This document shows, piece by piece, positions 42,227 through 51,969 of a DNA stretch of 64,000 nucleotides. How positions within the stretch are numbered: position 1 is the stretch's first letter; each line of letters opens with the position of its first letter. The notes under the pieces were generated by a model that saw nothing but the letters and a program-made list of their open reading frames with translations, was not told the origin of the DNA and made no database searches. Origin of the DNA: a virus; the IMG/VR virus record IMGVR_UViG_3300020599_000003, positions 96,001-160,000 of that record; one strand, 5' to 3'. Both the position numbers and the translations under genes were made by a program.

Positions 42227-43153
42227 TTACTGCATATCCCACAGGCTGAGCTGATTGGCGTCATCGCCGGAGGCTTTGTAGCGGTTCTTCGACCGCCCCC
42301 CAGCCAGCAGGCGAGCCATCTTGCTCGTCTCACACAGGCAGTTCTGCAGATCATGTGCTTCCAGCTTGCGGTCGGCGAAGATGGCCTTCAGCCGGGCGTC
42401 GTTGCGGAGAGCCGTGGTATATACGTGGAAGGCTTCCAGCCACGTAGAAGGCTTGATATCCTTCGGCCGAACGTTCAGGACGTAGGAAAGGCCGCGTGTG
42501 GAGCCCGGACCCTGCGGAGCCCACGTGTCTTTGTCGGACCAGGTGCCCTTGACGATGTGCCGCAGGTCAGCGACGACTTGGCCCGCTATGAACGAGCCGA
42601 GACCACGATACTGCATCAGGTTGTAGTGTGTCTGCTGCATGCTCGTGGTGTCGACCTCCTCATCGGAAATCGTGTTCCACATATCACGGAGGTTGTTCAG
42701 GACCGCTTCCCACTTCGCTACTCCACCGCCACCCCCGTTGATGATGTAGACGCCGGTGAAGATTTGTTGCTTGGCCTTCGCCATCTGCGCGAGCTTGACG
42801 TGCAGGTTCTTGTAGTGGAAGCCGTCGTAGCCCTTGGGGTACAGCAGCCCCAGCGTCTCGGGGCGATTGATGAGGCGGGCCAGCGAAGCGCCTACGGCCA
42901 TCTCGGACGGGGCGAGGCGGCGATTGGTGTAGAAGTTCTCGAGCAGCCAAATGCTGACCTTGTCATCCATGCGACGGACGTTGCACCAGCGCGTGTTCGC
43001 CATCAACTCGTTCTTGGTCCACGGGGCAGGCTTTCCCATGGCGCGGTTGCGACGAATGTTCTCGCGCTCGATGATCCACTTAACAGAGACTTCGTAGTGC
43101 GGCTTGTAGATTTGGAATTGGCTCACGTAGAGCTCCTCTGTGCGGCGCGCCAT
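42227..43153 (-). CDS. 5-hmdU DNA kinase (aGPT-Pplase1 family)
   Basis: ERENIRRNRAMG.PAPWT, RWCNVRRMDDKVSIW, GLGSFIAGQVVADL, GPGSTRGL, DLQNCLCETSK. Confidence 0.8.
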   Translation of the reverse strand: MARRTEELYVSQFQIYKPHYEVSVKWIIERENIRRNRAMGKPAPWTKNELMANTRWCNVRRMDDKVSIWLLENFYTNRRLAPSEMAVGASLARLINRPETLGLLYPKGYDGFHYKNLHVKLAQMAKAKQQIFTGVYIINGGGGGVAKWEAVLNNLRDMWNTISDEEVDTTSMQQTHYNLMQYRGLGSFIAGQVVADLRHIVKGTWSDKDTWAPQGPGSTRGLSYVLNVRPKDIKPSTWLEAFHVYTTALRNDARLKAIFADRKLEAHDLQNCLCETSKMARLLAGGRSKNRYKASGDDANQLSLWDMQ

Positions 43154-44115
43154 CCATCACGGCAGGCGTCCTGGATTGTTCGATTGGGTGCCCAGCCCCA
43201 CGCGGACATCGCGAACGACGCATCGGCGACGACATAAGCCGGATCGCCAGCGCGAGGGTCGGTCAGCACGCAGGGTACAGACACCTTATTTACTTCCTCG
43301 AAGGTGTCGATGAGCTCCAGCACGGAGGTGCCTTCGTTGGTGCCCACGTTGACCGCACCGTGCAGGCGCTCCTTGGAGGACACCAGATACTCCAGCGCGC
43401 ATACGTGAGCCTCGGCGACGTCCATAACGTGGATGTAGTCGCGGACGCACGTACCATCCTTCGTGGTGTAGCGGTCTCCGAACACCTTGAGCTCGGTGCC
43501 ACTGATCGCAGCGTTGATGATGCGCGGGAACAGGTTGCCCGGCGCACCCAGACCCTGGTCGGTGAGTAGGCCGGATTGGTGCCCACCGATGGGATTGAAG
43601 TAGCGCAGGCTGAGGCTGTTCAGGCTGGTGCAGTCGGCGAGGAACTGCTCCACCATCAGCTTGGTGCGACCATAAGGGCTGATCGGGCCGAGCGGCGAGG
43701 ATTCGCTCAGTTTGGCCTTGTATACTGGCGGCGCGTACACTGCGGCGCTGCTACTGAAGATCAGGTTCTTGATGCCGTAGCGTTCCATGGCCTCGACGAG
43801 CGCAATGGACTGGGCCACGTTGTTCTGGTAGTAGCGCACCGGCTGTTCCACCGACTCCGGCACAGACTTATATCCGGCCAGATGGATGACCGCATCGACG
43901 CCGTTCAGTGCCGGAGTATGGTAGCCACGCAACGCCCCCACAGACATCTGCAGAAAGTGTTGGGCCGACACATCCAGCTGACCCAGCGCATGTAGCGTGT
44001 TCAGGGAGCTATTCGACAAGTCGTCCATGATGACGATCTCGTGCCTGGATTCACGGAGGGCCACGCAGACATGCGAGCCTATGTAGCCCAGGCCACCAGT
44101 GACGAGAACCTTCAT
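43123..44115 (-). CDS. galE: UDP-glucose 4-epimerase
   Basis: VLVTGGLGYIGSH, FSSSAAVY, PYGRTK (YxxxK), LRYFNPIG, RDYIHVMD. Confidence 0.93.
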   Translation of the reverse strand: MKVLVTGGLGYIGSHVCVALRESRHEIVIMDDLSNSSLNTLHALGQLDVSAQHFLQMSVGALRGYHTPALNGVDAVIHLAGYKSVPESVEQPVRYYQNNVAQSIALVEAMERYGIKNLIFSSSAAVYAPPVYKAKLSESSPLGPISPYGRTKLMVEQFLADCTSLNSLSLRYFNPIGGHQSGLLTDQGLGAPGNLFPRIINAAISGTELKVFGDRYTTKDGTCVRDYIHVMDVAEAHVCALEYLVSSKERLHGAVNVGTNEGTSVLELIDTFEEVNKVSVPCVLTDPRAGDPAYVVADASFAMSAWGWAPNRTIQDACRDGWRAAQRSST

Positions 44116-50887: not shown

Positions 50888-51969
50888 TGGTTCGTCCGGT
50901 AATCATCACCAGTATACGCTTTGGTCCAGGAGACCACCACTTCTTGACGCACTTCTGACGTACTGTATTTACGGTCTTGGACCCTGACTAGACCGGGATG
51001 TATCTTGGCGAGTCTGAACGCCTCCGCGTTCGAGGCCTCCATTGTTCGTTCGGTACTGACTCCCCCTTCTGCACCAAAATCCAGCGGGTTGATGACGAGG
51101 TTTTGCATGATCGCATTGGGGTAGCCCAGCTTCAGCAGATGCAGCGTGACGTTGAAGTCCTCGCGGAAGCGCACTTCGTCGAAGCGGATGCCGTTGTCCA
51201 GCAGCGTGCGCCGGTGATGACCGATGGCGTGCATGGCGCGGCCCACGATCTTAAGCTCCTTGCGCACCGCGTTGTTCATCATGCGACTGGAGATGCAGGT
51301 ATGGGCGTACCCATCCTCCACCATGAGCTTTCGTAGAGCTTTCCAGGCTGCGGTACGCTGCTTATCGTCAAATCCATCTTTGAATAGGAATGTGACGCCC
51401 TTCTCCATCGCTTCATCAGTAACACGCCATTGGCCCGACTTCTCCGTACCGTGCCATTCGCGCATACTCATCGGACACCGCCGGAAGAAGTACATGTCGT
51501 CGTCCATCTGGAAGATGTTCTCGCTGCGCACGTTCTCTATAATCCATTGGCGTTTTTTGGCTATTCCATCTACAGAGGGGTCATCAACAGCCCATACCAA
51601 GTCGTGCTTGTAATAGCGACGGATTTCCTTAGCCTCATCCCAATCGCTGGTCAGCACGAGGGTGTTGGCGCGGATTTCGGGCGGCAGCTCCAGCAGAGTG
51701 ATCTGGCGGTGCGGACGCCGGTACGTCGGGATGACTATCTGGAAGTCCTTATCAGCCACGGGTGGGCGCTTGCCAGCGGGCTTGAGAACAATGCGTGGCT
51801 TCACATCAATGAACTGCGCACGGTTCGAGTTGACTCGCGATTCCTTCGGCTCTTTGGCTTTCGCTGCCTTGGGTTTCGCGGTGGACTTGGCACCCTTCTT
51901 GGTCGGTGCCTTGGGAGGAGCTTCGGCTGGCTGGGGCCGATTGGCGAGGATCCGAGAAAGTATGCCCAT
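50884..51969 (-). CDS. TAGT/GREB1-type GT-A glycosyltransferase 4
   Basis: IVIPTYRR..RQIT, FQMDDDM, FREDFNVTLHLLKLGYPN, GGVS; basic N-terminal tail. Confidence 0.75.
   Translation of the reverse strand: MGILSRILANRPQPAEAPPKAPTKKGAKSTAKPKAAKAKEPKESRVNSNRAQFIDVKPRIVLKPAGKRPPVADKDFQIVIPTYRRPHRQITLLELPPEIRANTLVLTSDWDEAKEIRRYYKHDLVWAVDDPSVDGIAKKRQWIIENVRSENIFQMDDDMYFFRRCPMSMREWHGTEKSGQWRVTDEAMEKGVTFLFKDGFDDKQRTAAWKALRKLMVEDGYAHTCISSRMMNNAVRKELKIVGRAMHAIGHHRRTLLDNGIRFDEVRFREDFNVTLHLLKLGYPNAIMQNLVINPLDFGAEGGVSTERTMEASNAEAFRLAKIHPGLVRVQDRKYSTSEVRQEVVVSWTKAYTGDDYRTNQ

Follow-up and report, generated by a model that had tools for sequence, protein, structure and literature searches.

The stretch of DNA analyzed here (the window) comprises 64,000 nucleotides, positions 96,001-160,000 of the IMG/VR virus record IMGVR_UViG_3300020599_000003, which is 177,803 bp long and has direct terminal repeats. 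At 42227-51969 of this window, the initial annotation had described a 5-hydroxymethyldeoxyuridine (5-hmdU) DNA kinase paired with only four glycosyltransferases (GTs) and no recognizable amino acid:DNA transferase (AADT). The present analysis places these genes in a tight operon of 15 genes, running from 53802 down to 40655 on the minus strand, which holds almost all genes of the region. With refined starts, successive stops and starts overlap or abut. In order of transcription, the genes are the following (window coordinates, strand, product and best supporting match):

53251-53802 (-): HADb, HAD-family phosphatase (Pfam Acid_phosphat_B, 29.1 bits)
52482-53249 (-): adenosine 5′-phosphosulfate (APS)-kinase-like P-loop kinase (Pfam APS_kinase, 39.6 bits)
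51976-52485 (-): HADa, second HAD phosphatase (Pfam HAD_PNKP, 32.8 bits)
50884-51969 (-): GT4, TAGT-family glycosyltransferase (Pfam TAGT, 42.6 bits)
49445-50887 (-): 480-aa fusion, nucleotidyltransferase-like/APH-type kinase (phrog_24015, 290.6 bits)
48684-49445 (-): NT, stand-alone sugar-1-phosphate nucleotidyltransferase-like protein (31% identity with phiRSL1 ORF235)
47930-48697 (-): GT3, TAGT-family glycosyltransferase (Pfam TAGT, 125.3 bits)
46932-47930 (-): GT2, divergent TAGT-like glycosyltransferase (phrog_842, 47.6 bits, its sole family match)
46135-46923 (-): sulfotransferase A (Pfam Sulfotransfer_2, 70.3 bits)
45323-46138 (-): sulfotransferase B (Pfam Sulfotransfer_2, 36.3 bits)
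44112-45332 (-): GT1, TAGT-like glycosyltransferase (phrog_842, 56.9 bits; Pfam TAGT just below its cut-off)
43123-44115 (-): GalE, UDP-glucose 4-epimerase (TIGR01179, 338.7 bits)
42227-43153 (-): HEL, aGPT-Pplase clade 1/HMUDK_hel protein of 308 aa (PF18723, 141.6 bits)
41151-42200 (-): thymidylate synthase (TS) homologue, predicted dUMP hydroxymethylase (Pfam Thymidylat_synt, 78.7 bits)
40655-41146 (-): DUF3310 protein (phrog_5839, 84.7 bits)

The four GTs are thus not alone in the interval that had been described, since GalE, the two sulfotransferases, NT and the 480-aa fusion also lie within it. For GT1, GT3 and NT, we retained internal ATGs that abut the upstream stops and agree with the lengths of the homologues, and rejected on these grounds the long N-terminal extensions of the program-made open reading frames (ORFs). 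No DNA nearly identical to the locus was found among 50,697 phage records. When DNA polymerases are compared, phiRSL1 and jumbo phages of Burkholderia and Achromobacter come out as the closest phages in culture (about 40% identity). Closer metagenomic relatives were found by means of HEL: L094, L006 and L009, whose HEL proteins are respectively 91%, 76% and 71% identical to that of the window.

The gene that had been called a 5-hmdU DNA kinase, HEL, encodes something else. Its product has no P-loop, no Walker A motif (GxxxxGK[ST]) being found in its 308 residues, and its only domain is PF18723 (HMUDK_hel), which covers residues 18-282 (profile positions 2-274 of 281) with the score given above against a cut-off of 25 bits. 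The same domain scores 141.2 bits in PaMx11 gp50 and 135.8 bits in phiRSL1 ORF231. The PaMx11 counterpart of HEL is gp50 and neither gp49 nor gp46, which are the proven P-loop 5-hmdU DNA kinase (5-HMUDK) and the proven glycine:DNA transferase of this phage (PMC8989533 Table 1). The tblastn matches of HEL in cultured phages are genes annotated as aGPT-Pplase or hypothetical, and its homologues bear the JGI label alpha-glutamyl/putrescinyl thymine pyrophosphorylase clade 1. The name HMUDK_hel probably derives from SP10 gp186, which fuses a kinase with such a domain and whose kinase half is active alone (PMC5889632 Table 3; PMC8989533).

The AlphaFold model of HEL, built from 40 sequences (pLDDT 90.6), has as its best PDB match the 5-PmdU glycinyltransferase gp46 of PaMx11 (8z2n, Z 10.9 over 220 residues), followed by helix-hairpin-helix (HhH) DNA glycosylases (Mag1, OGG and EndoIII, Z 8-9). 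Foldseek alone gave nothing at E<=0.001, the AADT match coming only upon re-alignment, and a PDB search with the HEL sequence returned nothing significant. Residues C274, E275, D268, Q270 and N271 are invariant in the 40 homologues and belong to a motif DxQN[TC]LCE. When the HEL and AADT alignments are compared by hhalign, the match is weak (E 0.11), and this low-confidence profile alignment puts C274 on the AADT nucleophile C247, Phe188 on the base clamp Trp146, the invariant Gln270 on the essential Glu243, and Gln192 on the glycine-binding Lys150 (residue roles of PaMx11 gp46 from PMC11472151). HEL is therefore not a kinase; it is a cysteine-containing paralogue of AADTs with a base-flipping-type, HhH glycosylase-like fold, and its active site is related to, yet distinct from, theirs. 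The structural match and the aligned cysteine make it the sole relative, in the locus, of the transferase that seemed to be missing. It should also be emphasized that the Pfam title "5-hmdU DNA kinase, helical domain" invites mis-annotation, as single-domain proteins of this family are AADT paralogues. A complex prediction of GT4 (residues 67-361) with HEL gave scores of 0.00, 0.42 and 0.00 and was used neither for nor against an interaction.

The absence of an AADT was correctly noticed from the locus and extends to the whole record, in which PF18724 (aGPT-Pplase2/ADDT) has no match at E<=1 and a custom hidden Markov model (HMM) built from 19 AADT ORFs has none either. The same search of the whole record at E<=1 gave no match to PF18746 (aGPT-Pplase3), to PF18748 (HMUDK_HMUD1, the P-loop HMUDK) or to PF12851 (Tet_JBP); this last result rules out a TET/JBP origin of 5-hydroxymethyluracil (hmU). 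Family scans of the operon genes did not turn up any pyridoxal-phosphate-dependent, radical-SAM or FAD tailoring enzyme. A stand-alone P-loop kinase of the AAA_33 family (57.6 bits) is encoded 118 kb from the locus (G000:19901-20545 (+), numbered on the whole record) and does not match PF18748. Since HEL is not a kinase and no P-loop kinase of the 5-HMUDK type was detected, the scenario first put forward, in which phospho-hmU is the acceptor of a sugar-phosphodiester, loses its enzymatic basis.

The TS homologue matches phrog_5131 (370.7 bits) and is 44% identical to PaMx11 gp51 and 50% to phiRSL1 ORF230. In the PDB, it best matches the CMP hydroxymethylase MilA (93 bits), from which it differs by an Asn instead of an Asp at the N177 position, while the Asp equivalent to D169 is kept (RSND...GAN versus RAND...SD). 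These two positions have been proposed as criteria for a uracil or cytosine substrate and for 5hodCMP synthases (PMC13326640). They rule out a 5-hydroxy-dCMP synthase or a dCMP hydroxymethylase, and the protein, which is closest to hydroxymethylases, is predicted to be a dUMP hydroxymethylase. In PaMx11, the hypermodified base derives from 5-hmdU (PMC8989533). The TS homologue of L006 (L006:10944-12992) is split by an intein, Pfam Intein_splicing lying between two Thymidylat_synt halves, and is 76% identical to that of the window over 151 N-terminal residues and 51% over the remainder. The DUF3310 protein scores 22.3 bits with the Pfam profile DUF3310, under its cut-off of 24 bits, and is 29% identical to PaMx11 gp53; 43 of the 88 HEL loci compared below have a DUF3310 gene downstream of that of the TS homologue.

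The partners of HEL were compared in 80 of the 414 IMG/VR loci that carry it (L012-L091), to which the loci already considered, including L002, L003 (phiRSL1), L006 and L008-L011, were added. This gave 88 HEL loci, or 72 clusters when grouped at 90% identity. Iterated HMMs served to annotate a 10-kb neighbourhood of each, the kinase and TAGT labels being checked against Pfam. A kinase of the HMUDK type adjoins HEL in 39 of the 72 clusters, 18 of which also have an ADDT and 21 of which have none within 10 kb. A TAGT accompanies HEL in 17 clusters, four with a sulfotransferase and an APS kinase in addition and 13 with neither kinase nor sulfotransferase within 10 kb, and the remaining 16 clusters have neither kinase nor TAGT. 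The two enzymes never occur together beside HEL (0/72 clusters, Fisher p = 8.6e-8). Furthermore, the TAGT sits in the slot of the kinase: the order is TAGT, HEL, TS, HD, DUF3310 in M6-like contigs such as L066, and kinase, HEL, TS, HD, DUF3310 in PaMx11. The active-site motif of HEL is identical in the kinase, TAGT and neither groups. The pairing of HEL with a TAGT, devoid of kinase and ADDT, is therefore a recurrent architecture and not an anomaly of the window. This exclusive pairing suggests that HEL is the partner of whichever enzyme first modifies the hydroxyl of hmU, kinase or TAGT, and the 21 clusters with kinase and HEL but no ADDT suggest that HEL may itself be a transferase. No description of this exclusivity, which constrains the function of clade-1 aGPT-Pplases, was found in the papers searched.

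All four GTs initially noticed are real, and so are their quoted motifs: VLFTRGR/DDDL in GT1, VVTSYGR/DDDQ in GT2, FIPTRGR/DDDL in GT3 and VIPTYRR/DDDM in GT4. Each has the (I/V)P(T/S)xxR strand motif and the DDD(x) metal/donor motif, and R85 and D156-D158 are invariant in our TAGT alignment A2. With the Pfam TAGT profile (PF20691, cut-off 27.5 bits), GT3 and GT4 are above the cut-off and GT1 is below (25.4-25.9 bits), GT2 having no Pfam match; phrog_842 matches all four, with 177.6 bits for GT4, 146.4 for GT3, and the scores listed above for GT1 and GT2. GT2 also reaches 239.6 bits with a custom TAGT HMM of which it is itself a seed, and is 29% identical to the Pfam-TAGT protein L009_309. GT1 has a C-terminal extension of about 140 aa and is 83% identical to L094_406, 27% to phiRSL1 ORF233 and 40% to L006_413, no other TAGT-like GT having been detected in L006. 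GT4 is the only one of the four that has a basic N-terminal tail rich in Ala, Lys and Pro (residues 10-45), of histone-H1 type, which from its composition looks DNA-binding. Most of the lone TAGTs that adjoin HEL in other phages are closest to GT4 (25-31% identity).

Several genes of the operon may supply the sugar donors. GalE exceeds the cut-off of TIGR01179 (262.3 bits), matches Pfam Epimerase (162.3 bits) and is 56% identical to the GalE that occupies the same position in L009. The 480-aa fusion has weak matches to NTP_transf_3 (16.8 bits, residues 28-72) and EcKL as well as to the NCBIfam APH(6) (25 bits), and is 38% identical to phiRSL1 ORF236, annotated "NDP-sugar pyrophosphorylase-like". 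By tblastn, its kinase domain matches T4-like phages of Acinetobacter and Serratia (E 1e-4 to 1e-5), including Maestro, which is listed among the phages with arabinosylated 5hoC (PMC13326640). As a lead only, its neighbour clusters in the atlas carry APH and NTP_transferase domains, and from its possibly AfhE-like architecture we infer a role in sugar activation. The stand-alone NT has no Pfam match but an N-terminal LAAGAGQRF signature, its ATG overlaps the preceding stop by a single base, and its atlas neighbour clusters are NTP_transferases (again a lead only). The first 70 residues of the fusion have no obvious GxGxR, unlike those of the adjacent NT, and the same arrangement is found in phiRSL1. 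The nucleotidyltransferase domain of the fusion may thus be degenerate, and the presence of an additional NT gene would then be accounted for. HADa (phrog_415, 69.3 bits), whose ATG at 52485 overlaps the stop of the APS-kinase-like gene, is 30% identical to HADb and is, by analogy, a candidate AfhF-like sugar-bisphosphate phosphatase (PMC13326640).

The operon would also encode a sulfation arm. Both sulfotransferases exceed the cut-off of Sulfotransfer_2 (PF03567, 22 bits) and keep the 5′-phosphosulfate-binding (KxxGTS) and 3′-phosphate-binding (RxPxxR) motifs for 3′-phosphoadenosine 5′-phosphosulfate (PAPS), which read KAAGTS (residue 16) and RNPYDR (residue 78) in sulfotransferase A, and KAGGTS and RDPLDR in sulfotransferase B. 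Sulfotransferase A matches phrog_3347 "Galactose-3-O-sulfotransferase" (165.4 bits) and is 65.5% identical to phiRSL1 ORF232; a PDB search with its sequence gave nothing significant, and a search for related loci with it alone retrieved just two distant viral loci. Sulfotransferase B is a paralogue (about 31% identity with A over roughly 90 N-terminal residues) that is 69% identical to its L094 homologue and 30% to the sulfotransferase of L006. The APS-kinase-like enzyme exceeds its Pfam cut-off of 21.1 bits, has a Walker A motif (GLPGSGKT), and has as its best PDB match the APS kinase of A. pernix (2yvu, E 4.5e-11), with PAPSS1/2 and CysC chains next in rank. The five best of its 20 NCBIfam matches are APS kinase or CysN/APS-kinase models, the rest being generic P-loop kinases, and it is 48% identical to phiRSL1 ORF238 "adenosine 5′-phosphosulfate kinase". 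Its gene was found only in the four HEL loci that also have sulfotransferases.

About 0.7 kb beyond the window, the record encodes CysD (353 bits with NF003587, whose cut-off is 195) together with a CysN-like GTPase (256 bits with TIGR02034, which is under the cut-off) at G000:160718-163130 (-). They would provide both subunits of ATP sulfurylase and thereby a complete predicted route from sulfate to APS and PAPS; the single-chain ATP sulfurylase PF01747 is absent from the genome, and CysD/CysN would fill its role. Taken with the co-occurrence with sulfotransferases, these genes give the APS-kinase-like enzyme a coherent role in PAPS synthesis. By tblastn, CysD is in no cultured-phage record, phiRSL1 included; its four matches come, at least in part, from bacterial DNA or from metagenomic fragments that lack annotation. 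HADb matches the phosphatase part of phrog_415 "polynucleotide kinase" (74.5 bits) and is 53-54% identical to the HADs that neighbour the APS kinase of L006 and of L009, irrespective of the sugar genes of these loci. It may be a 3′-phosphatase acting on 3′-phosphoadenosine 5′-phosphate (PAP).

ORF228-238 of phiRSL1 (NC_010811, 161.8-171.5 kb) are syntenic with the operon and on the same strand, in the order APS kinase, GT, 477-aa NT/kinase fusion, NT, GT, GT, sulfotransferase, HMUDK_hel and TS. Unlike the window, phiRSL1 lacks a GalE and has three GTs with a single sulfotransferase, and its HEL is only 27.6% identical. However, GT4 (63%, ORF237), GT3 (70.6%, ORF234) and sulfotransferase A are far more alike between the two phages than their DNA polymerases (40%), which suggests that a glycan module was exchanged. 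The cassette is indeed a mosaic made up of two modules. GT4, the 480-aa fusion, NT, GT3 and sulfotransferase A resemble phiRSL1 (the fusion and NT at only 38% and 31% identity), whereas sulfotransferase B, GT1 and GalE are common to the closer relatives L094, L006 and L009. L094 shares all three of the latter; its contig is cut upstream and only its HEL-TS flank is visible. L006 and L009 have a variable cassette between a conserved HAD and APS kinase on one side and a conserved HEL and TS on the other. That of L006 includes an ADP-heptose-type set (SIS, PfkB and CTP_transf_like) and that of L009 a UDP-galactofuranose-type set (GalE, the UDP-galactopyranose mutase Glf, a GT-B and a TAGT). APS kinase, HAD, HEL and TS are kept at 53-91% identity among the window, L006, L009 and L094. 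By contrast, when the window, L006 and L009 are compared, HEL and APS kinase are 69-80% identical and the sulfotransferases only 27-32%. The sulfotransferase thus changes with the sugar genes, which argues for a sugar acceptor and not for the constant hmU. These swaps of sugar and sulfotransferase genes between fixed flanks look like an O-antigen-style diversification of DNA glycans and may have arisen in an arms race with modification-dependent restriction.

Among the members of the TAGT family is the glucosyltransferase of trypanosome base J, whose acceptor is unphosphorylated hmU in DNA. With modest confidence, we lean towards the interpretation that the operon directs a post-replicative hypermodification of thymidine which puts a sulfated glycan on hmU in the phage DNA. 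The TS homologue would make 5-hmdUMP, through which hmU would enter DNA in place of T. A TAGT-family GT, with GT4 as the leading candidate and GT1 as the alternative, would then glycosylate the hydroxyl of hmU directly, in the manner of base J and without phosphorylation, and the remaining TAGT-like GTs would lengthen the sugar chain or build a second glycan. Donors would be provided by HADa, the separate NT, the kinase/nucleotidyltransferase fusion and GalE. The two carbohydrate-type sulfotransferases would sulfate the sugar or sugars with PAPS made by CysD/CysN and then the APS-kinase-like enzyme, and HADb may clear the PAP formed as by-product. HEL would work with the first modifier of the hmU hydroxyl, which is the kinase in M6-like phages and would be a TAGT here. 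The analysis directly shows homology, gene order and co-variation, all of them computed, from which we infer the biochemical steps, the order of the GTs, the sugars and the roles of HADb and HEL. Sequential GTs building an oligosaccharide, one of the options of the initial annotation, fit well with the four TAGT-like GTs, the supply of nucleoside diphosphate (NDP)-sugars by the phage and the precedent of base J. The other option, the coexistence of two modifications, gains indirect support from the two-module structure of the cassette.

Several observations weigh against the sulfated-glycan interpretation. The invariance of C274 and E275 marks HEL as an enzyme, while the proposed pathway gives it no defined reaction, and GT4 and GT1 are two contenders for the base-proximal step. 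That a sugar is what the sulfotransferases modify is suggested only by family membership and co-variation. The APS-kinase-like enzyme reaches none of the NCBIfam cut-offs (for example 37.6 bits for TIGR00455, whose cut-off is 138.7), INAD replaces LDGD in its sequence and its lid is shortened. As for a kinase acting on hmU, PF18748 is insensitive, since the proven kinase PaMx11 gp49 scores just 18 bits with it. A custom HMUDK HMM built from 46 kinase ORFs retrieved only the APS-kinase-like protein, weakly (23.6 bits), and the remote AAA_33 kinase (14.5 bits), which is the only other candidate for an hmU kinase. Furthermore, CheckV gives the record a completeness of 75% despite its terminal repeats, and the papers searched contained neither a characterization of the phiRSL1 locus nor any report on the DNA composition or modification of phiRSL1 or its relatives.

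Sulfate could alternatively serve as a leaving group. A sulfotransferase would convert hmU into 5-sulfooxymethyl-dU, C274 of HEL would attack C6 and expel the sulfate, and a nucleophile would add to the exocyclic methylene, the GTs decorating this adduct or other sites. In favour of this reading, HEL is an AADT structural paralogue with an aligned (C274/C247) and invariant cysteine, and no HMUDK kinase was detected in the genome. A sulfate ester should chemically be a good leaving group at this position, and APS kinase, sulfotransferase, HEL and TS occur together in the window and in the three relatives in which the whole region is sequenced. However, the 13 clusters in which HEL is accompanied by a TAGT only imply that, as a rule, it has no need of an activated ester. 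The low identity of the sulfotransferases, compared with that of HEL and APS kinase, is unexpected for enzymes acting on a constant hmU; they belong to carbohydrate families, and the essential Glu243 of AADTs is Gln270 in HEL. We therefore regard this alternative as unlikely, and give slightly less credence to the form in which O-sulfation replaces the phosphorylation of hmU and C274 expels the sulfate to install a new substituent. If true, this route would parallel the kinase/AADT pathway with PAPS as its driver, and nucleic-acid modification would have its first intermediate of the sulfo-ester kind.

It is also quite improbable that a cryptic kinase (the APS-kinase-like enzyme, the APH domain of the fusion or the remote AAA_33 protein) phosphorylates hmU and that HEL, as the transferase, then displaces the phosphate or turns it into an ester such as a sugar-phosphodiester. 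The weak HMUDK score of the APS-kinase-like protein and the existence of a second P-loop kinase in the genome are consistent with it. So are the 21 clusters with kinase and HEL but no ADDT, in which HEL is perhaps the transferase, the fact that the only aGPT-Pplase listed for SP10 is the kinase-fused domain (PMC5889632 Table 3), and the sugar phosphodiester carried by a thymine derivative in SP-15 DNA (PMC5977210). However, the best matches of the P-loop enzyme are APS kinases, it is confined to sulfotransferase loci, and CysD/CysN give it a coherent role in PAPS supply. The APH-type domain would fit the architecture of AfhE-like sugar kinase/nucleotidyltransferases (PMC13326640), and an HMUDK kinase and a TAGT were never found together beside HEL.

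It is equally improbable that the GT, sulfotransferase and NDP-sugar genes merely adjoin the hmU cassette and have as their target a protein of the virion or a polysaccharide of the host envelope: polysaccharide loci typically contain Sulfotransfer_2 and GalE, atlas neighbours of the fusion and of NT are named "capsular biosynthesis protein" (leads only), and L004 and L005 hold distant sulfotransferase relatives with no HEL detected nearby, but the four GTs belong to or resemble TAGT/phrog_842, which is linked to DNA glycosylation, their genes overlap in a single operon that also holds HEL and the TS homologue, one lone TAGT takes the slot of the hmU kinase in many phages, the tail of GT4 looks suited, by its composition, to DNA binding, and the cassette of the relatives is always bracketed by APS kinase and HEL-TS.

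Both the post-replicative addition of a glycan to a hydroxymethyl-pyrimidine and the hypermodification of thymidine by a kinase and an amino acid transferase are already known. The systems of M6, PaMx11, ViI, PhiW-14 and SP10 share with the window the HEL-TS-DUF3310 cassette (gp50, gp51 and gp53 in PaMx11) and the start from hmU. However, they use a 5-HMUDK and an AADT, neither of which was detected here, where a TAGT is found instead of the kinase and sugar and sulfate chemistry would take the place of amino-acid chemistry. In the making of base J, a TAGT-family GT also puts a sugar directly on the hydroxyl of hmU, with no prior activation, as we propose for the window; base J is the beta-D-glucosyl-hmU of kinetoplastids (PMC13229309). 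The JBP1/2 and JGT pathway nevertheless obtains hmU from a TET/JBP dioxygenase, whereas a TS homologue would make it before replication in the window, which would add several GTs, a phage-made donor supply and sulfation. The poly-arabinosyl-5-hydroxycytosine of RB69/DLP3 and the glucosyl-hmC of T-even phages follow the same logic, from a TS homologue to a hydroxylated pyrimidine and then to sequential DNA GTs. The UDP-arabinose route of HY126 has in AfhE/AfhF what looks like the same architecture of an NT-kinase fusion and an HAD phosphatase for the NDP-sugar (PMC13326640). The GTs of the RB69/DLP3 type are however sucrose-phosphate-synthase- or BshA-like, with no sulfation, while those of the window are TAGT-like and the base would be uracil-derived. 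The DNA of Bacillus phage SP-15 contains dihydroxypentyl-uracil with glucose and phosphoglucuronolactone, i.e., an anionic sugar on a thymine replacement, as in our interpretation of the window, and relatives of SP-15 were reported with an aGPT-Pplase1 gene (PMC13697223, PMC5977210). Unlike the window, its C5 linker is made before replication, its charge comes from a phosphodiester and its enzymes resemble those of teichuronic acid synthesis.

In the papers searched, there was no report of a sulfated DNA modification or of sulfated phage DNA, nor of a sulfation arm supplied by a complete sulfate-activation pathway of the phage itself. With CysD, a CysN-like GTPase, an APS-kinase-like enzyme and two sulfotransferases in or near a DNA-glycosylation operon, this phage is a concrete candidate for such a modification, and a cultured relative, phiRSL1, shares the core locus.

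Two other genes of the window were also noticed. The ORF at 39960-40775 (-) matches phrog_2428, and its homologues in L006 and L094 have a weak match to Pfam Acb2_Tad1_hairpin; its product is possibly an anti-CBASS/Thoeris sponge with an acidic C-terminal part. Furthermore, a family-A DNA polymerase of 1069 aa is encoded at 59209-62418 (-). Family-A polymerases fused to a uracil-DNA glycosylase were reported in phages with T-modified DNA (PMC13697223), and about 200 residues precede the exonuclease domain in that of the window.

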